This document shows positions 34,057 through 61,180 of a stretch of 64,000 bases of DNA, piece by piece. The DNA is taken from the IMG/VR virus record IMGVR_UViG_3300042402_003952, one strand, 5' to 3'. This stretch comes from a virus (Duplodnaviria > Caudoviricetes). The position numbers and the translations under genes are program-made. Within the stretch, counting starts at the first letter, position 1. Every line of letters begins with the position of its first letter. The notes under the pieces are model-generated. The model was not told the DNA's origin, searched no databases, and worked only from the letters and a program-made list of their open reading frames with translations.

Positions 34057-34325
34057 GATGTAATCCATAAAGCAAAATACAGGGGAGAGAAACCAAAAGT
34101 TTCCTCCCTTTTTTTATGCTTTGTGCCACTTGTTCAACTGGTCGTATCATTTGCCATTGGGGTCCAAACCCTGGTATATTACTTGAGTTGGTGGGGGAAC
34201 GAGACCCCAAGTGCCTAGGACCACTTCTGGAACTGGCACAAACCACTTGATTCCCAACGGGTTCTGTGGTATTCTTAAGGAGTGGTTGAGAGACCACCAG
34301 CACCTTGACAATCTAAACCTTTAAT

Positions 34326-34398
34326 GGGTCTGTTGCATAGCGGCTAATGCACCTGGCTTTTAACCAGTATATCGTGGGTTCGAGTCCCACCAGACCCA
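34326..34398 (+). tRNA. tRNA-Lys(UUU)
   Basis: Cloverleaf, loop CU-UUU-AA, GGUUCGAGUCC T arm. Confidence 0.92.
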
Positions 34399-34436
34399 TT
34401 GACCGCTACAGTTCGGTCATTAAACATAAACTGTTC

Positions 34437-34520
34437 GGGTAGGTGTCCGAGTGGTTAATGGAGGAGGTCTGTAAAACCTCTGGCTCTGCCTACGGGGGTT
34501 CAAATCCCTCCCTGCCCACC
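34437..34520 (+). tRNA. tRNA-Tyr(GUA)
   Basis: GAGGU-CUGUAAA-ACCUC, long variable arm. Confidence 0.92.
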
Positions 34521-34522
34521 TT

Positions 34523-34596
34523 GACCCATTAGTGTAGCGGTTTATCACGCCACCCTGTCACGGTGGAGATCACGGGTTCAAATCCCGTATGGGTCG
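34523..34596 (+). tRNA. tRNA-Asp(GUC)
   Basis: CCACC-CUGUCAC-GGUGG. Confidence 0.92.
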
Positions 34597-34644
34597 TTGC
34601 TACGCTGCCTGTGGAGTATTCCTCCTTGGTGGTTGTAGCATCAT

Positions 34645-34719
34645 GGTCCTATCGTCTAGTGGTGAGGACATCACTCTTTCACAGTGAAGACACGGGTTCA
34701 AATCCCGTTAGGACTACCA
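34645..34719 (+). tRNA. tRNA-Glu(UUC)
   Basis: UCACU-CUUUCAC-AGUGA; encoded CCA. Confidence 0.92.
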
Positions 34720-34796
34720 CGGAATGTAGCGCAGTTTGGTAGCGCATCTGTTTTGGGAACAGAGGGTCGCAGGTTCGAATCCTGTCATTCCGACCA
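34720..34796 (+). tRNA. tRNA-Pro(UGG)
   Basis: UCUGU-UUUGGGA-ACAGA; encoded CCA. Confidence 0.92.
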
Positions 34797-34869
34797 GGAA
34801 ACATAGCTTAGTTGGTAAAGCATTCGACTGATAATCGAAAGAGCACTGGTTCGAGTCCAGTTGTTTCCA
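34797..34869 (+). tRNA. tRNA-Ile(GAU)
   Basis: UUCGA-CUGAUAA-UCGAA. Confidence 0.92.
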
Positions 34870-34892
34870 TTGTTGCCTTAAGGCAACATTAA

Positions 34893-34982
34893 GGAAGTGT
34901 GGCAGAGAGGTCTAATGCAGTGGATTGCTAATCCGCCGATGTTCTTTAAGGGCATCCGTTGGTTCGAATCCAACCACTTCCG
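34893..34982 (+). tRNA. tRNA-Ser(GCU)
   Basis: GUGGA-UUGCUAA-UCCGC, long variable arm, G73. Confidence 0.92.
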
Positions 34983-35069
34983 TAGGACTCCAGCAAGGTG
35001 CTTGCTAGGATATAAAAGACTGACGCCTCCCTCTTCAGAAAGAGTAACCAGCAGGTCAGCGTCCACTTT

Positions 35070-35141
35070 GGCAGTGTAGTTCAGTGGTAGAACAAGAGAT
35101 TCATACCCTCTATGTCGGTAGTTCAATTCTACCCACTGCCT
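35070..35141 (+). tRNA. tRNA with CAU anticodon (Met or Ile2)
   Basis: AGAGA-UUCAUAC-CCUCU (31:39 mismatch); GGCAGUG/CACUGCC acceptor. Confidence 0.8.
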
Positions 35142-35142
35142 T

Positions 35143-35215
35143 GTGTCGTTAGCCTAGTGGTTAAGGCAGTAGTTTGTGGAACTACCTAGATGGGTTCAAT
35201 TCCCATACGACACCC
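35143..35215 (+). tRNA. tRNA-His(GUG)
   Basis: GUAGU-UUGUGGA-ACUAC; G-1 and C73. Confidence 0.88.
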
Positions 35216-35216
35216 C

Positions 35217-35288
35217 GCCCTTATAGCTCAGTGGTAGAGCAACTCACTAGTAATGAGTAGGTCGTTGGTTCAAATCCGACTGAGGGCT
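35217..35288 (+). tRNA. tRNA-Thr(AGU), A34 anticodon
   Basis: ACUCA-CUAGUAA-UGAGU; canonical D and T arms. Confidence 0.88.
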
Positions 35289-35323
35289 CTCAACTATCTG
35301 AAATTTCCAGATAGTTCATACAA

Positions 35324-35395
35324 TCCAGAATCGACTAACTGGCAGGTCAGCACCCTTTGAAGGTGTACGTCTAGGTTCGAATCCTAGTTCTGGAA
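35324..35395 (+). tRNA. tRNA-Gln(UUG)
   Basis: GCACC-CUUUGAA-GGUGU; U1-A72. Confidence 0.9.
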
Positions 35396-35396
35396 T

Positions 35397-35590
35397 TGCC
35401 CCTAATGGGGCAACAATCTGTCCAACACTGGGGTTCGACTCCCCACATCTCCACTCTTGGGGATGAACTGGCATTCGACTGGGCAGAGGGTTCTGAGAAT
35501 AAATCTCAACAACATCGTATCTTTCCGCAGAACTGCTGTTGCCGTTTGAGCAATAGCACTTTGAGCGAACTGGGGAGTAATCCCTTTTTC
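35397..35590 (+). ncRNA. ssrA: Two-piece (circularly permuted) tmRNA: acceptor piece ~35397-35453, intervening 35454-35458, coding piece from 35459; tag ORF 35505-35549
   Basis: T arm GGGG-UUCGACU-CCCC; acceptor GGGGAUG/CAUCUCC-A with G3.U70; D loop AACUGGCAUUCGAC; P2 UGGGCAGA/UCUGUCCA; tag LNNIVSFRRTAVAV*. Confidence 0.9.
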
Positions 35591-35591
35591 T

Positions 35592-35666
35592 GTTGGGTTG
35601 GTGCAATTGGTAGCATCTCGGTCTCCAAAACCGAAGATCAGAGTTCAAGTCTCTGGCCCTTCGCCA
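35592..35666 (+). tRNA. tRNA-Trp(CCA), two U-U mismatches in acceptor stem
   Basis: UCGGU-CUCCAAA-ACCGA; encoded CCA. Confidence 0.82.
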
Positions 35667-35667
35667 T

Positions 35668-35744
35668 ACCCTCTTAACTCAGTGGACCAGAGTGCTTGGC
35701 TACGAACCAAGAAGTCGCAAGTTCGAATCTTGCAGAGGGTGCCA
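35668..35744 (+). tRNA. tRNA-Arg(ACG)
   Basis: CUUGG-CUACGAA-CCAAG; encoded CCA. Confidence 0.9.
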
Positions 35745-35781
35745 TTTAAATCTAAATAGCAACAAGAGGTGTGATAGGAAA

Positions 35782-36252
35782 ATGGAATTAGTAGAACCAC
35801 ACTCAACTATACTAGTTTTGAATAGTTCTTACGAGCCACTACACTTCACTAATTGGAAACGTGCAATAGTTTTACTTTTCAAACAGAAAGCAAAACTTAT
35901 CTCCAAGAGAATTATTCGTTTGGTGAATTATGTGAAAATTCCATTTTCCTATGGAAGATCAGATTACCCGACGAGAGCACTCATCTATAAACGGGATGAT
36001 TATGAGTGTCAGTATTGTGAGTCTAAAAATGACCTTACAATTGACCACATAATTCCCCGCTCAAAAGGTGGTAAAGATACTTGGGATAATTTAGTTGCTT
36101 GTTGCACATCTTGTAATCTCAAAAAAGGAAATAAACTTCTTAAAGAGACTAATATGATCTTAAAGAGTATTCCGCAAGCACCAATTAGTAGAGTAATACT
36201 TGATATTCAGAAAACAAAAGTTTCTGAATGGAAGGACTATTTGTTTCAGTGA
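35782..36252 (+). CDS. HNH endonuclease (McrA-like) inside tRNA array
   Basis: CQYC...TIDHIIPRSKGG..WDNLVACCTSCNLKKG. Confidence 0.88.
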   Translation: MELVEPHSTILVLNSSYEPLHFTNWKRAIVLLFKQKAKLISKRIIRLVNYVKIPFSYGRSDYPTRALIYKRDDYECQYCESKNDLTIDHIIPRSKGGKDTWDNLVACCTSCNLKKGNKLLKETNMILKSIPQAPISRVILDIQKTKVSEWKDYLFQ

Positions 36253-36347
36253 GAGATTGACAAATTTTTGAAAATACCCTAATATATAAAGACAGAGGTT
36301 AAGTCCCTGTTACATCCTTATGAGGTGTATCACACTTAATCCATCAT

Positions 36348-36422
36348 CGTGGGGAAGTGTAATGGTTGCACAGAAGTCTCATAAGCTTCAGGTAGGTGGT
36401 TCAACTCCATCCCCCGCCTCCA
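36348..36422 (+). tRNA. tRNA with CAU anticodon and unpaired C1 (initiator-like, atypical)
   Basis: GAAGU-CUCAUAA-GCUUC; C1:C72 mismatch; encoded CCA. Confidence 0.75.
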
Positions 36423-36495
36423 GCCCTTGTATTCCAATGGTAGAGAAGGTGGACTTAGAATCCATACAGTGTAAGTTCGAATCTTACCAGGGGCA
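36423..36495 (+). tRNA. tRNA-Leu(UAG), short variable arm
   Basis: GUGGA-CUUAGAA-UCCAU. Confidence 0.82.
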
Positions 36496-36535
36496 CTTGA
36501 CAATCAAACTTAAATAGTTTATAATTGTCTTATAA

Positions 36536-36607
36536 GCGGAGTTAGTTCAGCGGTAGAACGCTATCCTTCCAAGTTAGATGTCGTCGGTTCGATTCCGATA
36601 CTCCGCT
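36536..36607 (+). tRNA. tRNA-Gly(UCC)
   Basis: CUAUC-CUUCCAA-GUUAG; U73. Confidence 0.9.
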
Positions 36608-36659
36608 CTGAACCTTCGGGTTCTATAAACACACAAACACACTTCATAGGAGAATACTT

Positions 36660-36857
36660 ATGACGCCTTATCAACTTAGATTTGAAGTTTTTAAGCAAGC
36701 TTATGCGATGCTTTCGGATAATTATCATGTAGAGTTTGCAAAAGCAGAATGCTCTAATGGTGGCAAATTGCCGGATGGATTTGATTTAAAATATCCAACT
36801 CTTTCTGATGTTCTTGGGCACGCAGAAACGATTAATGATTTTGTAAGTTCTAAGTAA
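36660..36857 (+). CDS. Small hypothetical protein within tRNA array
   Basis: MTPYQLRFEVFKQA...YPT...AETINDFVS; SD AGGAG. Confidence 0.65.
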   Translation: MTPYQLRFEVFKQAYAMLSDNYHVEFAKAECSNGGKLPDGFDLKYPTLSDVLGHAETINDFVSSK

Positions 36858-36865
36858 TAGAACAT

Positions 36866-36937
36866 TCCCCTGTGGCGCAGCGGTAGCGCGAGAAACTGTT
36901 AATTTCCAGGTCACAAGTTCGAATCTTGTCGGGGGAG
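36866..36937 (+). tRNA. tRNA-Asn(GUU)
   Basis: AGAAA-CUGUUAA-UUUCC; G73. Confidence 0.9.
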
Positions 36938-36956
36938 TTGCTATCAGTAGCAAACT

Positions 36957-37036
36957 GTAGGTGCCAAATACCCCTTCTGGTTAATGCTGGAAGAAGTAAA
37001 GAGTGTGGACATAGGTAAAGTCCACAACACCTACCA
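36957..37036 (+). ncRNA. Candidate three-way-junction RNA
   Basis: GUAGGUG/CACCUAC encloses CUUCUGG/CUGGAAG and GUGGAC/GUCCAC hairpins. Confidence 0.5.
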
Positions 37037-37039
37037 CAA

Positions 37040-37111
37040 CCTCTGGTAGTCTATTGGTAAGGACGGGCGGATAACGCACTTGGAAACTAGGTTCGATTCC
37101 TAGACAGAGGT
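37040..37111 (+). ncRNA. tRNA-like element with non-canonical anticodon arm
   Basis: CCUCUG/CAGAGG acceptor, GUCU/GGAC D stem, CUAGG-UUCGAUU-CCUAG T arm; anticodon arm only GCG-GAUAA-CGC. Confidence 0.6.
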
Positions 37112-37114
37112 AAC

Positions 37115-37187
37115 GGGAGCATAGCTCAGCGGTAGCAGCGTCTGCTTTACACGCAGAATGTCGGGGGTTCGAATCCCTCTGCTCCCA
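37115..37187 (+). tRNA. tRNA-Val(UAC)
   Basis: UCUGC-UUUACAC-GCAGA. Confidence 0.92.
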
Positions 37188-37214
37188 CTTGCATAAATAT
37201 TGAAAAAGAGTATA

Positions 37215-37649
37215 ATGGAAAAACTGTTTAAACTTTTAAGTGATGCTCAGTCATCACTTTTTGTTTTATTTCATAAAACTTGGGCATTTCATTGGAATGT
37301 AGTTGGTGAAGATTTCACACAACTACATCAACTCTTTGGTGGACAGTATGAGACTATGTTTGAAGAGATTGATCGTCTTTCTGAACATATGAGATACTTA
37401 AATGTAAAACCATTAAGTTCTCTTTCAAGAATGCTTGAAGTGACTCAAATCAAAGAGTCTGCAAGTTCAACTGGAGCAAAAGAAATGCTTCAGGAACTTC
37501 TGGATAATAACACCAAGTTTTGTGAGTTAATGGCAGAGATTTCGGAAGAAGCAGAAGAACAAAAGTCTTATGCAACTGCCAATCTAGTTCAAGACTTAAT
37601 GGAATCTCATGGTAAATTTGTATGGATGTTGAGATCACATTTACAGTGA
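37215..37649 (+). CDS. dps: Dps/ferritin-like DNA-protection protein
   Basis: HWNVVGEDFTQLHQLF..QY..EEID..EH ferroxidase motif; W(M)L at C-terminus. Confidence 0.9.
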   Translation: MEKLFKLLSDAQSSLFVLFHKTWAFHWNVVGEDFTQLHQLFGGQYETMFEEIDRLSEHMRYLNVKPLSSLSRMLEVTQIKESASSTGAKEMLQELLDNNTKFCELMAEISEEAEEQKSYATANLVQDLMESHGKFVWMLRSHLQ

Positions 37650-37664
37650 TAAGGATGAAGAAAA

Positions 37665-37916
37665 ATGATTTCAATAAGATGTAAAGATTGCAATAAAGAA
37701 TTAACAGGACACCCATCAAAAACAGTTACTTGTGGGTGTCCTAATATGGCAACAATTCGTGGAGACAAGATTTCGGCACTTGACTTATCTCGAATTGTCA
37801 TGCTAAACTCTCTAAAAGAAAATCAAAACAAAAGTGTGCTTACTTCTCAAGACATTGCTTGGCAAGAAGCACGTCGTCAACGTAAAGTAAGACGACTTGA
37901 TTTTGAAGTCCGTTGA
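37665..37916 (+). CDS. Small Cys-rich (zinc-ribbon-like) hypothetical protein
   Basis: CKDC...CGC. Confidence 0.65.
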   Translation: MISIRCKDCNKELTGHPSKTVTCGCPNMATIRGDKISALDLSRIVMLNSLKENQNKSVLTSQDIAWQEARRQRKVRRLDFEVR

Positions 37917-37927
37917 GGACTTAATTT

Positions 37928-38014
37928 GGAAGGTCAATCCGATTGGCGACGGAACCGCTCTTGAAAAGCGTTGAGGTGTTAAAGCCCTTGGGAGTTCGAC
38001 TCTCCCACCTTCCG
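37928..38014 (+). tRNA. tRNA-Ser(UGA)
   Basis: CCGCU-CUUGAAA-AGCGU, long variable arm, G73. Confidence 0.9.
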
Positions 38015-38127
38015 TTTAGAAAAGTTACAAATTTAACAATTTCTTCAACAGTGTTAAGATATCAACACAAAAAGTTGACTGCGAAATACCTGTGATTAGT
38101 ATATAGTAGTATCACGGGGACGAACCG

Positions 38128-38277
38128 ATGGATCAACATACTTACGAAAATTGGGTGAAAATCAAAGAAACATTTGAAACTTCTGGTAATATTGATAATA
38201 TGTTTTACAAAAGAGCCGTTCAAATTGTTAAAACAAGAGTCGATCCTCTTGCAAAGTTTTTGGGAGATGAGAAGTGA
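38128..38277 (+). CDS. 49-aa hypothetical protein
   Basis: Hand translation MDQHTYENWVKIKETFETSGNIDNMFYKRA... Confidence 0.6.
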   Translation: MDQHTYENWVKIKETFETSGNIDNMFYKRAVQIVKTRVDPLAKFLGDEK

Positions 38278-38444
38278 TGGAACCTGGGGATGAATTTATT
38301 AGTAGGTCTGAAGTGCAGGAGATGATCGACCAAGCTATTGACAAACACAATAAAACTGCTACAATAATATCAGCAGCAATCGGTTCGGTTCTGCTCTTCT
38401 TCTATGCCCACGGCGTCATTGCTATTATAGATAGAGTACAATGA
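38277..38444 (+). CDS. 55-aa membrane protein
   Basis: Hand translation EVQEMIDQAIDKHN...IISAAIGSVLLFFYAHG; TGATG coupling. Confidence 0.6.
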   Translation: MEPGDEFISRSEVQEMIDQAIDKHNKTATIISAAIGSVLLFFYAHGVIAIIDRVQ

Positions 38445-38560
38445 GACACTTTGCTCATTTAATTTTGGATAATCAGGTTTCGCTTTTTATCCTTTGCTAC
38501 CTCTTGACAATGGTTCCAATCATGGGTATAATGATTATACACCAAACAAAAGAAAAATAA
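38441..38560 (+). CDS. 39-aa membrane protein
   Basis: Hand translation MRHFAHLILDNQVSLFILCYLLTMVPIMGIMII; ATGA coupling. Confidence 0.5.
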   Translation: MRHFAHLILDNQVSLFILCYLLTMVPIMGIMIIHQTKEK

Positions 38561-38636
38561 CGGAGTATCGCCTAACTTGGTCATGGCACCTGCTTTGGGA
38601 GCAGGAATAATTTCGGTTCAAATCCGAATACTCCGA
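38561..38636 (+). tRNA. tRNA-Pro(UGG), second copy
   Basis: CCUGC-UUUGGGA-GCAGG. Confidence 0.9.
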
Positions 38637-38652
38637 TCATAAAAATAACTTT

Positions 38653-38880
38653 ATGAAAATGCAAGAACTAGAAGAACTTCAATCCTTTACAGTCGAAGAG
38701 TTTCAATCTGATTTTGACAATCTAATACAAAGAGTAGAAAACGGTGAATCATTTATCATACGAGATGGAAATAATAGCGCAGTGATAGTTCCTTACAACG
38801 AAACCATAAAGTACGCAATAGAATCAACTGTGGATGACGAACTGATACGTCTTCACACAGACCACGAAGAAGGTTCTTGA
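38653..38880 (+). CDS. Phd/YefM-like antitoxin-fold protein (orphan)
   Basis: SFTVEEFQSDFDNLIQRVENGESFIIRDGNNSAVIVPY resembles the Phd/YefM N-terminal pattern. Confidence 0.55.
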   Translation: MKMQELEELQSFTVEEFQSDFDNLIQRVENGESFIIRDGNNSAVIVPYNETIKYAIESTVDDELIRLHTDHEEGS

Positions 38881-38919
38881 CACAGAGTTCCAGATCCTCT
38901 ATAATAGATTCAGATTCAA

Positions 38920-39007
38920 GCGAGTGAGACTTGGTAGTCAGAGGGCACTTATAACGCCTTTCCGCCAGATTAGCGGCTTTGACCTGGTTCGAATCCAGGC
39001 ACTCGTA
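38920..39007 (+). tRNA. Atypical tRNA with UAU anticodon and long variable arm
   Basis: GCGAGUG/CACUCGU acceptor, GACU-UGGU-AGUC mini D arm, loop CUUAUAA, CCGC/GCGG variable arm, CCUGG-UUCGAAU-CCAGG. Confidence 0.65.
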
Positions 39008-39036
39008 TTGTTATTCGTGATTTGCGAATAGCGAAT

Positions 39037-39109
39037 GCCCGTTTGGCCCTCTGGTGAAGGCAATCTGCTCATAACAGATAGAAGGTCGGATCGTAACCGA
39101 CAACGGGCA
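39037..39109 (+). tRNA. tRNA-Met(CAU), elongator-like, T loop AUCGUAA
   Basis: AUCUG-CUCAUAA-CAGAU; GCCCGUU/AACGGGC. Confidence 0.85.
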
Positions 39110-39157
39110 TTTTTTAATAAAACTCATATAAATAAATAGGACTGTCCTATTATAAGT

Positions 39158-56740: not shown

Positions 56741-56805
56741 AGAATACTCAAAGCGCCCCAAAAGGGCGCTTTTTTAATAAATAGAATATCGAATGGATAA
56801 GGACA

Positions 56806-57495
56806 ATGAGAGTAGATCTTCATAACTTTTTTCAGTATTATGATCCAAAGAATCCTAAACATGTTGCAGCAGTCGAACAACTAGAAGTTGACTTAAAGGA
56901 TTCTCCTCTACTTGACGATAGTTCTAATTGGGTCAAAATTTATAGAACAAAACCAACTGTTCCGGGAGTCCTACCCGTTCCTTTTTATCCACAGACAGAT
57001 AATTATAGAGATGCGCAAAGAACCTGCAATTCATCTGCTTGTGCAATGTGCCTAGAGTATTTCAAACCAGGCACTCTCCAAGGAGCAAAGGGTGATGATA
57101 CCTATATTCAAAAAGTATTTGCAATTGGTGATACAACTGATCACACCGTACAGACAAAAGTTCTGGAAGGTTATGGTATTAAGTCACGATTTAGTTACAA
57201 TCTTGGGTTTGCTGATCTTGATCGTGAGTTATCCGCTGGGAGACCTGTTGTTATTGGTATCCTTCACAGGGGCACTCTATCTGCACCTACTGGTGGGCAC
57301 ATGGTTGTAGTGATTGGGAAGAGAGGTGAGGATTATGTTGTGAACGATCCTTACGGTTCTCTGAATGATGGATATACTGGACCAGTCACAAACGGTAAAG
57401 GTGCGGTGTATAAGAAATCTGATCTGAACTTCCGTTGGTTAGAAAAAGGTAAAGATAAGACTGGTTGGGGGCGTATTTTTGACGCAAAAAAGTAG
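56806..57495 (+). CDS. C39-like cysteine peptidase (0-frame product of lysis gene)
   Basis: RTCNSSACAM (Cys), GGHMVVVIG (His), VNDPYG (Asp). Confidence 0.85.
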   Translation: MRVDLHNFFQYYDPKNPKHVAAVEQLEVDLKDSPLLDDSSNWVKIYRTKPTVPGVLPVPFYPQTDNYRDAQRTCNSSACAMCLEYFKPGTLQGAKGDDTYIQKVFAIGDTTDHTVQTKVLEGYGIKSRFSYNLGFADLDRELSAGRPVVIGILHRGTLSAPTGGHMVVVIGKRGEDYVVNDPYGSLNDGYTGPVTNGKGAVYKKSDLNFRWLEKGKDKTGWGRIFDAKK

Positions 57496-57551
57496 AAAGT
57501 TCTACTCCTGATTCGAGTAAAAGTGATATATCCATAAAAGGAGTAGAACTT
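57486..57551 (+). promoter_or_regulatory. Programmed -1 ribosomal frameshift signal
   Basis: A_AAA_AAG at 57486-57492, stop TAG, then 13-bp stem AAGTTCTACTCCT (57497-57509) / AGGAGTAGAACTT (57539-57551). Confidence 0.85.
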
Positions 57552-57986
57552 ATAAAAGAATTTGAAGGATGTCACTTAAATGCTTATCCAGACCCTTTAA
57601 CAAAAGGACCACCGATTACAATTGGTTGGGGAAGCACTAGAGACTTTGACGGAACGCCATTTAAAATAGGTAGAGTGATTACTCAAAAGTATGCAGACAC
57701 TCTACTTGAGTTTGATTTAAAGAATAGATTTTTACCATCACTTCAAAGAATACCTTACTGGAATGAAATGAATGAAAATCAACAAGGAGCTCTTCTATCT
57801 TTTGCTTATAATCTTGGTGCTGGTTTTTACGGGTCTTCCAATTTTAATACCATAACCAGAGTTCTTAAGAATAAAGAGTGGTCTAAAGTTCCTGATGCTT
57901 TATATCTTTACCGCAATCCTGGAACAAGTGTGGAAGCGGGTTTGAAAAGAAGAAGAGTTGCAGAAGGTAAACTCTGGTCTTCTTAA
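57486..57986 (+). CDS. GH24-like lysozyme domain in -1 frame, no own start codon before the catalytic motif
   Basis: Hand translation KKVESSTPDSSKSDISIKGVELIKEFEGCHLNAYPDPLTKGPPITIGWGST...SFAYNLG...GLKRRRVAEGKLW. Confidence 0.85.
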   Translation, partial: KKVESSTPDSSKSDISIKGVELIKEFEGCHLNAYPDPLTKGPPITIGWGSTRDFDGTPFKIGRVITQKYADTLLEFDLKNRFLPSLQRIPYWNEMNENQQGALLSFAYNLGAGFYGSSNFNTITRVLKNKEWSKVPDALYLYRNPGTSVEAGLKRRRVAEGKLWSS

Positions 57987-58219
57987 TCATCCATCTTTGC
58001 TTTTAATCCAAGCAACGCAGTAAACAAAGTAAACAACGCACTATATCCTTTGTCTATAGAGTTTTCGCACTTTATAGATGGGGGATTTTTTAATTCTCCT
58101 TTTGCATTGGCACTTTCAATAGATCCAGGGATCATAAAGTTGCAGTTGGTAAATGTAATACCAACATACCCTACAGTGCAAACTACAATAATAATGATTA
58201 ATTTGTCTAGTATTTTCAT
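57983..58219 (-). CDS. Small membrane protein convergent on lysis gene
   Basis: Two hydrophobic segments; overlap with neighbour. Confidence 0.55.
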   Translation of the reverse strand: MKILDKLIIIIVVCTVGYVGITFTNCNFMIPGSIESANAKGELKNPPSIKCENSIDKGYSALFTLFTALLGLKAKMDD

Positions 58220-58682: not shown

Positions 58683-58765
58683 TAAACACCCATTAACCGA
58701 GACCTATGGGGTGTATAAATTACGTCTCTCATATCTTCTCTAGGGGTGAGAAGAAATATTGAACC
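58683..58765 (+). ncRNA. PhotoRC-II-like RNA motif in psbA leader
   Basis: ACACCCAU/AUGGGGUGU and GAGAC/GUCUC pairings; position upstream of psbA; identity recalled, not searched. Confidence 0.6.
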
Positions 58766-58806
58766 CTGTTCGTCCCCACGAACTCTTACTTAACCCTTTT
58801 TCAAAT

Positions 58807-61180
58807 ATGACTGCTTCAATCGCTTCACGCCGTTCTGGCGAAAACCTCTGGGAACAATTCTGTTCCTGGGTAACTTCAACCGATAATAGACTGTATGTTG
58901 GTTGGTTCGGAGTCCTTATGATTCCTTGCCTTCTTGCTGCTACAACTTGTTTTATTATCGCTTTCATCGGTGCTCCCCCTGTAGACATAGACGGTATCCG
59001 TGAACCCGTTGCTGGTTCACTAATGTATGGAAACAACATCATCTCTGGTGCTGTTATTCCAAGTTCTAATGCCATTGGATTGCATTTTTACAGCATCTGG
59101 GATGCTGCTTCTCTTGATGAGTGGCTTTATAAATAATATTGGGTCACTTTAAATCGGGTGAACTGCTGGAAAGCTAAGTTCTTTATGAAACACAAACATC
59201 ACCTTACTCCAAAATATCTTGGTGGTTCTAACGAATCCCAAAATCTTGTAGAAGTTTCTACAACTCAACACGCTATGTTTCATTATTGTAACTGGCGTCT
59301 TTGGGGAAACGAAGAAGATAAGATTGCTTGGAAAGCACTTGCAGGATACTCTAAAAAAGAGGAAATAATTCATCAAGTTATTTCTCTTGCAGGTAAAAGA
59401 GGTGGTAAGGTTGCAAAAGAAAGCGGACAACTTCGGTCTGCTGCTCTTAAACAACCAAGAAGTGTAAGGCAAAAGATTGGTAAAAATCTTATCAACTATG
59501 CCTACAAAAATCCAAAGAATGCAACACAAGAAACTCTTACTAATAGAAAATACAGTAAAGTATTTCACATTTATGAAAAACTAACTGAAAGGACTATTGG
59601 TAATCATCTTGGGGATGTAGTTTTTAATCCAGAAGAAGATAAAACACTCAAAACTGTTTGTTCTATTATTCTGGAAAAATATGGGGTAAAAGTTTATCCT
59701 TCACATCTTAATAGTGTTGCTAATGGAAATAGACTTTTAACAAGTGGTATTTCTTGTAGTTGGATTTTAGAGAATATGCCAATCAGCATCCAAGCCACAG
59801 ACGATACTTCTGTGGAAGGTTCAGAGACTACTGGGTTCAACAAGCGTGTTGAGTAATACCAGATTAGCGCCCGACATCTTATAAAAAATAAGATGAAGAT
59901 ATAGTCCAGTCCATATGGAAACATATGGTTCCCCCGACTGCTATAATGGGGGTCCTTTCCAACTTGTTGTCTTCCACTTCCTCATCGGCATCTACTGCTA
60001 TATGGGTCGTGAATGGGAACTCTCTTACCGTCTAGGTATGCGCCCTTGGATTATGGTTGCTTATAGCGCACCTGTTGCTGCTGCGAGTGCTGTATTCCTG
60101 GTCTATCCTTTCGGTCAAGGTTCTTTCTCTGATGCGATGCCTCTTGGTATCTCTGGTACATTCAACTACATGCTTGTATTCCAGGCAGAGCACAACATCC
60201 TGATGCACCCCTTCCACATGCTTGGAGTTGCTGGTGTCTTCGGTGGTTCTCTTTTCTCTGCTATGCACGGATCTCTTGTCACCTCTAGTCTTGTACGTGA
60301 GACTACAGAAAATGAGTCACAGAACTACGGATACAAGTTCGGACAAGAAGAAGAAACCTACAACATTGTAGCTGCTCATGGTTATTTTGGTCGCCTTATC
60401 TTCCAATATGCTTCCTTCAATAACTCACGTTCACTTCACTTCTTCCTTGCTGCTTGGCCCGTTGTAGGCATCTGGTTCACTGCTCTTGGTGTTTCTACAA
60501 TGGCTTTTAACCTCAATCGTCGGGGTCCCGTCTTAGCAATTTGACGGTAAACATCGGGTGAACTGCTGGAAGCCCTCCATAAATGGGTAATCAGCATCCA
60601 AGTCCAAAGTACACTTTGGAAAGGTTCAGAGACTACCTGAGGAGTTCAGTCTCCTTAATAACAGGAATAAGTGCCCGACATCCTAAATGGATGAAGATAT
60701 AGTCCACTCCTTAAAGATGGTAAATTTAAGGGTTCAGTGCAACGGTTTTAATTTCAATCAGTCCATCATTGACTCACAAGGTCGTGTCCTTAATACTTGG
60801 GCAGATGTACTGAATCGTGCAGGTCTCGGAATGGAGGTCATGCATGAACGGAACGCTAGATTTGTTGGTGTTCTTGCTTAGGAATAAGCATTAGTAAAAT
60901 CGGGTTAAACGGGGAAACTCTCTATGAGACAATCCCGTACCAAGTCAGAAAGGGTTTAAGTTTTCTGAAAGGTCTAACGACTAGATGGTGAGTCCCAACA
61001 ATAATCCATCCACGAATGCCCGACATCCAGAACGGATGAAGAGATAGTCTGAACTTACTAGTGATAGTAAGAAGTAGAGGATAAAGAACCACTACGATAA
61101 CAAAATTGCACAACTTCCCACTTGACCTTGCCGCAGCAGAAGCAACACCAGTTGCTCTTACTGCTCCCGCAATCGGTTGA
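58807..61180 (+). CDS. psbA: Photosystem II D1, four exons: 58807-59126, 59941-60513, 60740-60857, 61109-61180 (1083 nt, 360 aa)
   Basis: Joined exons restore [39 protein letters not shown] in one frame. Confidence 0.95.
59127..59940 (+). mobile_element. Group I intron 1 in psbA (814 nt) with HNH ORF
   Basis: P1 GAGUGGCU/GGUCACUU with U.G, terminal G, UCAGAGACUA and AAGAUAUAGUCC core. Confidence 0.92.
59185..59856 (+). CDS. Intron-encoded HNH homing endonuclease
   Basis: [29 protein letters not shown]; TATAAATA at 59128; 3' end overlaps intron core. Confidence 0.85.
   Translation: MKHKHHLTPKYLGGSNESQNLVEVSTTQHAMFHYCNWRLWGNEEDKIAWKALAGYSKKEEIIHQVISLAGKRGGKVAKESGQLRSAALKQPRSVRQKIGKNLINYAYKNPKNATQETLTNRKYSKVFHIYEKLTERTIGNHLGDVVFNPEEDKTLKTVCSIILEKYGVKVYPSHLNSVANGNRLLTSGISCSWILENMPISIQATDDTSVEGSETTGFNKRVE
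60514..60739 (+). mobile_element. Group I intron 2 in psbA (226 nt, no ORF)
   Basis: Exon ends in U, intron ends in G; core shares AUCGGGUGAACUGCUGGAA, AAUCAGCAUCCAAG, UCAGAGACUA, AAGAUAUAGUCC with intron 1. Confidence 0.92.
60858..61108 (+). mobile_element. Group I intron 3 in psbA (251 nt, no ORF)
   Basis: P1 GGAACGCU/GGUGUUCU, terminal G, AACGACUA and AAGAGAUAGUC core. Confidence 0.92.

Follow-up and report, generated by a model that had tools for sequence, protein, structure and literature searches.

In Escherichia coli (E. coli), the dnaX gene yields its tau and gamma products at a set ratio through a −1 frameshifting cassette that combines the slippery heptamer A_AAA_AAG, a nearby downstream stem-loop and an upstream Shine–Dalgarno (SD)-like element. 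Bacteriophages use minority −1 shifts in late genes: in the lambda G/GT tail chaperone and in T7 10A/10B, a shift near the end of an open reading frame (ORF) gives a C-terminally extended product at a fixed ratio. Two products are also known from the phage lysins CD27L, CTP1L and Lys170, where they arise from an internal in-frame start and the short product is the C-terminal binding domain. Here we describe a lysin locus in the IMG/VR virus record IMGVR_UViG_3300042402_003952, a stretch of 64,000 nucleotides (nt), hereafter the window, that is part of a T4-like (Kyanoviridae-like) cyanophage from lake-water metagenomes. At this locus (56806–57986), a cysteine peptidase gene ends on the same heptamer as dnaX, and a lysozyme without a start codon of its own follows in the −1 frame. 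We assign a probability of roughly 0.85 to the reading that the two are joined by programmed −1 ribosomal frameshifting at a conserved recoding signal. The lysozyme, here as in the cultured phage S-PM2 and dozens of other relatives, is most likely made only by a one-base slip at the end of the peptidase gene.

The locus resembles dnaX in its heptamer, in a downstream stem only a few nucleotides away, in a possible upstream SD-like element at a permissive distance and in the prediction of two products from one gene. It differs in what the shift would achieve: the shifted frame of dnaX stops almost at once and gives the shorter product, whereas here it is the zero frame that stops and the shift that adds a catalytic domain. 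There is also no sequence or covariance-model match to dnaX, and the sequence of the lysin hairpin is not conserved even within its own family. As with lambda G/GT and T7 10A/10B, a C-terminally extended minority product is predicted, but those genes encode structural or assembly proteins, while the extension here is an enzyme domain of a lysin. Like the genes for CD27L, CTP1L and Lys170, this one lysin gene would give a full-length and a shorter product; unlike in those systems, the short product is the N-terminal peptidase, released by termination, and it is the long product that needs recoding. The proposed mechanism is of a known type in a different class of gene, with a whole enzyme domain added by the shift. 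A literature search, thin on subscription journals, found no published frameshift of this kind in a lysin or endolysin.

Layout of the junction and its two enzymes

The peptidase ORF (56806–57495, on the plus strand like the junction features described below) encodes 229 amino acids (aa), the predicted product of termination in the zero frame, and its 3′ end reads GAC GCA AAA AAG TAG. The heptamer A_AAA_AAG occupies 57486–57492 in the X_XXY_YYZ phase, with the TAG stop (57493–57495) directly 3′ of it. The −1 frame is closed by a TGA at 57480–57482, 4 nt before the heptamer, and is then open from 57483 to a TAA at 57984–57986, with GTA as the codon that overlies the zero-frame stop. From 57492 to 57986 it encodes a linker of about 20 aa followed by a GH24 (T4-type) lysozyme, 164 aa altogether, that lacks its own start: the frame holds no ATG, GTG or TTG before a GTG at 57675, which lies 3′ of the catalytic motifs FEG, YPD and TIGWG. 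A slip at the heptamer would add these 164 aa to the 229 aa of the peptidase, for a predicted fusion of 393 aa.

A putative stimulatory hairpin follows at 57497–57551. Its arms (57497–57509 and 57539–57551) form a perfect stem of 13 base pairs (bp) around a 29-nt loop after a 4-nt spacer, with a predicted energy of −18.4 kcal/mol (z = −4.24), and none of 200 shuffled sequences folded as well. Upstream, the G-rich SD-like run GGTTGGGGG (57463–57471) ends 14 nt 5′ of the heptamer. It encodes a conserved Gly-Trp-Gly, whose codons force the run and whose third positions vary freely among relatives with no sign of added constraint, and it may or may not have a stimulatory role. These coordinates agree with an earlier note on this DNA, which had described a peptidase ORF ending GCA AAA AAG TAG with the heptamer in phase, a 13-bp stem shortly after it, a G-rich run about 14 nt upstream, a −1 frame closed by TGA just before the slip site and offering no start before the catalytic motif (the first being the GTG at 57675), and products of 229 and about 393 aa.

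A possible H-type pseudoknot was also seen in the window, where 57521–57533 could pair with 57567–57577 (AAGUGA and AUCC of the loop against UCACUU and GGAU, in the EGCH codons). S-PM2 keeps a similar CAAGU/ACUUG pairing. The pseudoknot is not general, in that stem families with 7-nt loops cannot form the pairing.

Both frames encode recognizable enzymes. The peptidase, a C39-like cysteine peptidase of the papain fold, matches PF13529 (Peptidase_C39_2; E = 2.5e-11, 44.8 bits against a cut-off of 24). Its residues Q63, C74, H165 and D181 are invariant in 70 homologues, and its AlphaFold2 (AF2) model is papain-like, with a predicted local distance difference test (pLDDT) score of 91.3. The best matches of this model in the PDB are 3erv, a C39-like peptidase from Bacillus, and the peptidase domains of bacteriocin-processing PCAT/ComA proteins. 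A PDB sequence search with the peptidase returned chance matches only, and a contig search found only host-type C39 peptidases of filamentous cyanobacteria along with a probably mis-binned phage contig. Judging from the partner domains, the substrate is probably a peptide bond in peptidoglycan.

The lysozyme matches PF00959 (Phage_lysozyme; E = 5.4e-22, 78.9 bits against a cut-off of 22.3) as well as lysozymes and endolysins in the PDB (best 9kbq, E = 6e-14), and comparison of 51 distinct sequences shows its FEG, YPD and TIGWG motifs to be conserved. Because the ratio of nonsynonymous to synonymous substitution rates (dN/dS) between relatives and the window lies at 0.06–0.34, we conclude that the start-less lysozyme is under purifying selection. 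PHROG families named 'endolysin' match the proteins of the locus, and the fusion protein may be an endolysin rather than another lytic enzyme, or it may serve as a virion-borne lysin instead of an endolysin of the lysis cassette.

Conservation of the proposed recoding signal among related loci

Two scans, covering IMG/VR and phage records, yielded 105 classifiable related loci. An in-phase A_AAA_AAG stands at the end of the peptidase ORF, with the lysozyme in the −1 frame, in 74 of them, and three more carry T_TTT_TTT at the same junction. The rest comprise ATGA-coupled genes (13 loci), in-frame fusions (9), a fusion with reversed domain order (1), well-separated genes (2) and loci with no lysozyme nearby (3). 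The A_AAA_AAG layout is common to many samples and to cultured isolates, at up to about 40% protein divergence, and its recurrence in 74 of the 105 related loci indicates an arrangement that exceeds chance. A stop codon directly follows the heptamer in 67 of these 74 loci (TAG in 60, TAA in 5 and TGA in 2). Furthermore, the codon before AAA AAG is always NNA at the 39 distinct junctions compared (GCA 25, GTA 12, ATA 1, ACA 1); that X remains A while the encoded residue changes between Ala, Val, Ile and Thr suggests that the nucleotide itself is under selection.

Homopolymer runs are error-prone, and a variant with seven A residues (A7) that restores one frame does exist, which would favour reading the split gene as a single-base error of assembly or sequencing, or as a recently frameshifted gene that is being lost. 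The earlier note had named an assembly error as one way in which its reading could fail. Examination of the junction in Logan contigs showed, however, that three independent runs, dated 2016, 2024 and 2025, each have contigs that span it with no gaps and 0–2 substitutions, and with the same layout in 74 related loci this rules out a single-base assembly error. S-PM2, which was sequenced twice, reads GAT GCA AAA AAG TAA and again has a start-less lysozyme in the −1 frame. The breadth of the layout and its protein divergence speak against decay, as does a lysozyme ORF that is under purifying selection and intact in all of the 74 loci that could be read through. We regard artefact or decay as highly improbable. 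An assembly error, considered as a candidate in its own right, was rejected on the agreement of these independent assemblies without an indel.

In most relatives the zero-frame stop comes after just 10 nt of open −1 frame, and among the first 89 loci about 45 lack any ATG, GTG or TTG before the catalytic Glu. This bears on whether two separate proteins could be made instead, by termination at the TAG and reinitiation on a nearby non-canonical codon, which would give a free lysozyme and no fusion. Coupled relatives provide a precedent, in which the genes overlap at ATGA (the 13 loci and S-SRM01) or, in a few more loci, at GTGA or TTGA, but the window and those roughly 45 relatives offer no canonical or alternative start (ATG, GTG or TTG) anywhere between the upstream stop of the −1 frame and the catalytic Glu. 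Reinitiation accounts for neither the phase of the heptamer nor the hairpin, and a hairpin at the restart site would in fact hinder initiation. In addition, lysozymes that are truly separate carry an extra N-terminal module that is absent from the one encoded here. We therefore give reinitiation little credence and prefer ribosomal frameshifting.

Of the 41 distinct A_AAA_AAG junctions, almost all have a 9–14-bp hairpin starting 0–8 nt 3′ of the heptamer. Its 5′ arm lies inside the unconserved interdomain linker and its 3′ arm in the codons just before the LIKEFEG of the lysozyme. The arms belong to at least nine unrelated sequence families, with loops of about 7 to 55 nt, and three stem families were aligned separately, rather than under a single column-wise model, because the register of the helix relative to the heptamer and the lysozyme differs between families. 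Compensatory double changes occur within these families at 4 of 11, 2 of 9 and 2 of 8 pairs. In the window's own stem family (alignment A1), 97% of cells are paired, against 29–50% when the partners are slid, and there are 13 double-change cells compared with 3.3 in shuffles, a count that none of 500 shuffles reached. The stem of S-PM2, for example, differs from that of the window by a compensatory change from U-A to C-G. Over 43 distinct junctions, a set that also takes in T-run loci and those from the second scan, the mean z was −1.77 against shuffles that keep the protein and redraw synonymous codons. S-SRM01 serves as a natural negative control: its lysozyme starts at an ATG of its own, and the hairpin is absent from this place (z about 0; synonymous-shuffle z = +1.0). 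An Rfam scan gave two sub-threshold chance matches, neither of them to a frameshift element. The conservation of heptamer and stem that the earlier note had proposed as a check is thus found among the relatives, in 74 of 105 loci for the heptamer, with X always A, and as covariation for the stem.

In-frame fusions, a second slippery sequence and the N-terminal module

In ACG-2014f-type phages and nine metagenomic loci, peptidase and lysozyme lie in one frame, a fusion that is modelled by PHROG 3617. Together with the A7 variant, they indicate that the fused product is viable. Their junction, ...GWGRIFDAKVEEKK... (FDAKVEE...), is collinear with the predicted trans-frame product of the window, in which GWGRIFDAKK is followed by VESS. 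These in-frame cyanomyovirus lysins (ACG-2014f/PHROG 3617 and S-CREM1/PHROG 10051) share both catalytic domains and the N-terminal module with the locus studied here. Unlike it, they are encoded in one frame (with the order reversed in S-CREM1 and L114), give one product, and show neither the heptamer nor a consistent, conserved hairpin, which makes the in-frame fusions a natural negative control. The earlier note had named in-frame fusions in relatives among findings that would count against frameshifting; such relatives exist, but with their collinear junction and without heptamer or hairpin they support it. Its suggestion that the full lysozyme requires frameshifting likewise gains support, from the start-less frame, the conserved signal, the dN/dS of 0.06–0.34 and the collinear in-frame fusions.

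S-CREM1 (1459–2640 of locus L004) and L114 represent the reversed fusion, which runs from lysozyme through the N-terminal module to peptidase and corresponds to PHROG 10051. L114 is part of a metagenome-assembled genome that bears the label Acidimicrobiaceae, probably through mis-binning of a phage contig.

A different slippery sequence occurs in S-CAM7 and two metagenomic relatives (L089 and L090), whose peptidases diverge by up to 12%. Their junction reads GT T_TTT_TTT CCA CAG TAG, with the lysozyme again in the −1 frame, and the S-CAM7 lineage has a different 13-bp hairpin, 5 nt downstream, that is kept through wobble changes. In the peptidase tree, the U_UUU_UUU trio nests inside the in-frame-fusion clade with 96/85 support, and all A_AAA_AAG loci fall in the other main clade (the tree is midpoint-rooted, and the direction of change is not proven). 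Most simply read, these sequences suggest that frameshifting arose twice at one and the same junction between the domains.

The A7 variant mentioned above, from a close relative of the window's clade, encodes a 389-aa in-frame fusion (P0194) that reads FDVKKVV. It was seen in two runs of one study (880–900 of L126 and 784–804 of L127). This variant implies that one-base changes in the run can switch a locus between the frameshift and in-frame modes.

The same homopolymers raise the possibility of transcriptional slippage, in which RNA polymerase would insert an extra A while copying the A6 run, or an extra U at the T8 run in S-CAM7, and identical protein products would result. Both lineages have a homopolymer at the site, the A7 variant indicates that the run is length-labile at the DNA level, and the junction is covered by contigs and not by RNA reads. 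Slippage of this kind, however, needs no X_XXY_YYZ phase, no final G, no adjacent stop and, above all, no covarying hairpin at 0–8 nt, all of which are features of a ribosomal signal; an A6 run is also shorter than the runs of about nine that are generally known to slip efficiently. We consider transcriptional slippage improbable, and ribosomal frameshifting the better account of the junction.

Several points nonetheless weigh against ribosomal frameshifting. The evidence is comparative, drawn from sequences, and it is contigs alone that cover the junction. The z-scores of individual junctions against synonymous shuffles are modest. A spacer of 4 nt is at the short end for −1 signals such as those of dnaX and the insertion sequence (IS) elements. 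In E. coli, A_AAA_AAG slips very readily because both codons are read by a single tRNA-Lys(UUU); a picocyanobacterial host may possess tRNA-Lys(CUU) as well. Finally, a minority of relatives (L043, L048, L020–22, L104 and S-SRM01) have start codons over or just after the stop, and translational coupling may contribute there.

The first 48 or so residues of the peptidase ORF (56806–56949, plus strand) form an N-terminal module of two helices (residues 5–11 and 17–31) that lies beyond the Pfam peptidase domain. The stand-alone lysozymes of DSL-LC02 and DSL-LC03 each open with a copy of it (54% identical across 48 aa, E = 3e-17). In the ATGA-coupled lysozymes, an extension of about 55 N-terminal residues shows a weak profile match to the module (hhalign E = 2.3e-4, probability 44%); BLASTP of the peptidase module against this extension gave nothing (E = 0.28), and comparison of the module with a protein atlas gave no usable match. 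These observations suggest that the lysozyme needs the N-terminal module, which it gains here only through the frameshift fusion. S-SRM01 is an exception, with an ATG of its own, no module on the lysozyme and the heptamer retained.

A broader scenario, which we put forward tentatively and hold to be possible but doubtful, is that recoding solves a problem of domain sharing and has evolved at least twice. The 48-aa module would then serve every lytic enzyme as an obligatory part for targeting or docking, and phages would provide it to the lysozyme by copying it (DSL-LC02 and DSL-LC03), by fusing the genes in frame (ACG-2014f) or by frameshifting a tuned fraction of ribosomes. A_AAA_AAG and U_UUU_UUU would be independent solutions, each with its own hairpin, made possible by a linker that is free to evolve as an RNA structure, and one-base changes in the slippery run could move lineages back and forth between a fixed ratio and all-fusion expression.

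Proposed mechanism, genomic setting and implications

In the mechanism that we propose, ribosomes translating the late-expressed peptidase gene would arrive at A_AAA_AAG with both the P and the A site occupied by tRNA-Lys, and there the 13-bp hairpin 4 nt downstream would block their progress. Most would read on to the TAG and release the 229-aa peptidase, consisting of the N-terminal module and the C39-like domain. A fraction would slip back by one base (AAA-AAG to AAA-AAA), continue with GTA GAA onward and make the 393-aa protein, composed of the N-terminal module, the peptidase, a flexible linker and the GH24 lysozyme. The lysozyme would never be made alone, and one message would give two cell-wall-degrading products at a ratio set by the RNA signal. 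We infer that the slippage is ribosomal, and we extend the same reasoning to its efficiency and to the action of the proteins as lysis enzymes on peptidoglycan. A fixed product ratio may in this way meter lysis.

The window also carries a tRNA array at 34325–39110 with 22 phage tRNA genes, among them tRNA-Lys(UUU) at 34325–34399, and no gene for tRNA-Lys(CUU) was found within it. As a matter of speculation, a tRNA-Lys(UUU) supplied by the phage, the species expected to slip on A_AAA_AAG, might raise the efficiency of frameshifting.

The stretch is present in at least 16 lake or freshwater metagenome runs, and over the locus its best identity to any record in the phage collection is about 71%. 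Neighbours of the locus include genes for ferredoxin, peroxiredoxin and PsbA. A terminator-like G+C-rich hairpin with a T run, as read from the letters, lies 3′ of the peroxiredoxin gene at 56750–56775 on the plus strand; a hairpin scan gave the same element a 10-bp stem and, by the criteria of the scan, assigned it to the minus strand. This hairpin-plus-T-run layout also precedes the peptidase gene in many relatives. Next to it, AATAAATA (56776–56783, plus strand), a motif like the T4-type late promoter, stands 22 nt 5′ of the peptidase ATG; among 66 distinct upstream regions from relatives, 27 have ATAAATA 21–25 nt 5′ of the corresponding ATG. The arrangement of hairpin, T run and AATAAATA fits T4-type late transcription, with a promoter function that we consider probable. 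Across the window, ATAAATA occurs 31 times on the plus strand and twice on the minus strand, a bias that fits a T4-type late promoter element serving genes that are mostly on the plus strand.

Convergent with the lysozyme, a 78-aa ORF on the minus strand (57983–58219) has N- and C-terminal hydrophobic segments and a charged tail, and its stop codon overlaps that of the lysozyme. Homologues occupy the equivalent place in 27 related loci, including those of S-PM2 and S-SRM01, and no PHROG match was found for it. With its two predicted transmembrane segments, this ORF is a candidate holin. Further along, the region 58759–59856 holds the N-terminal part of psbA (encoding D1) followed by an interruption with an HNH-like ORF (59158–59856).

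In the metatranscriptome run X17, two short contigs match the lysozyme at 57602–57734 and 57820–57983 with 90–99% identity, a hint that the lysozyme gene or that of a relative is naturally transcribed. None of the X17 contigs crosses the frameshift junction.

The family has consequences for annotation as well as for phage biology. The lysins of S-PM2 ('putative lysin') and S-CAM7 have long been mis-annotated as short truncated ORFs, PHROG 10457 is built from such truncated fragments, and none of the nine public phage records inspected has a frameshift marked in its annotation; the layout described here corrects this. Across the family, these two enzymes come in frameshifted, fused, coupled or separate form, with two slippery sequences and many hairpins, which makes it a natural experiment well placed to address what selects for two lytic products at a fixed ratio. 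The proposal can be tested directly in culture, with S-PM2 infecting Synechococcus WH7803. If confirmed, phage cell-wall lysins would join the short list of gene classes set by programmed −1 frameshifting, and such frameshifted lysins would be found in one of the most abundant phage groups of lakes and oceans.

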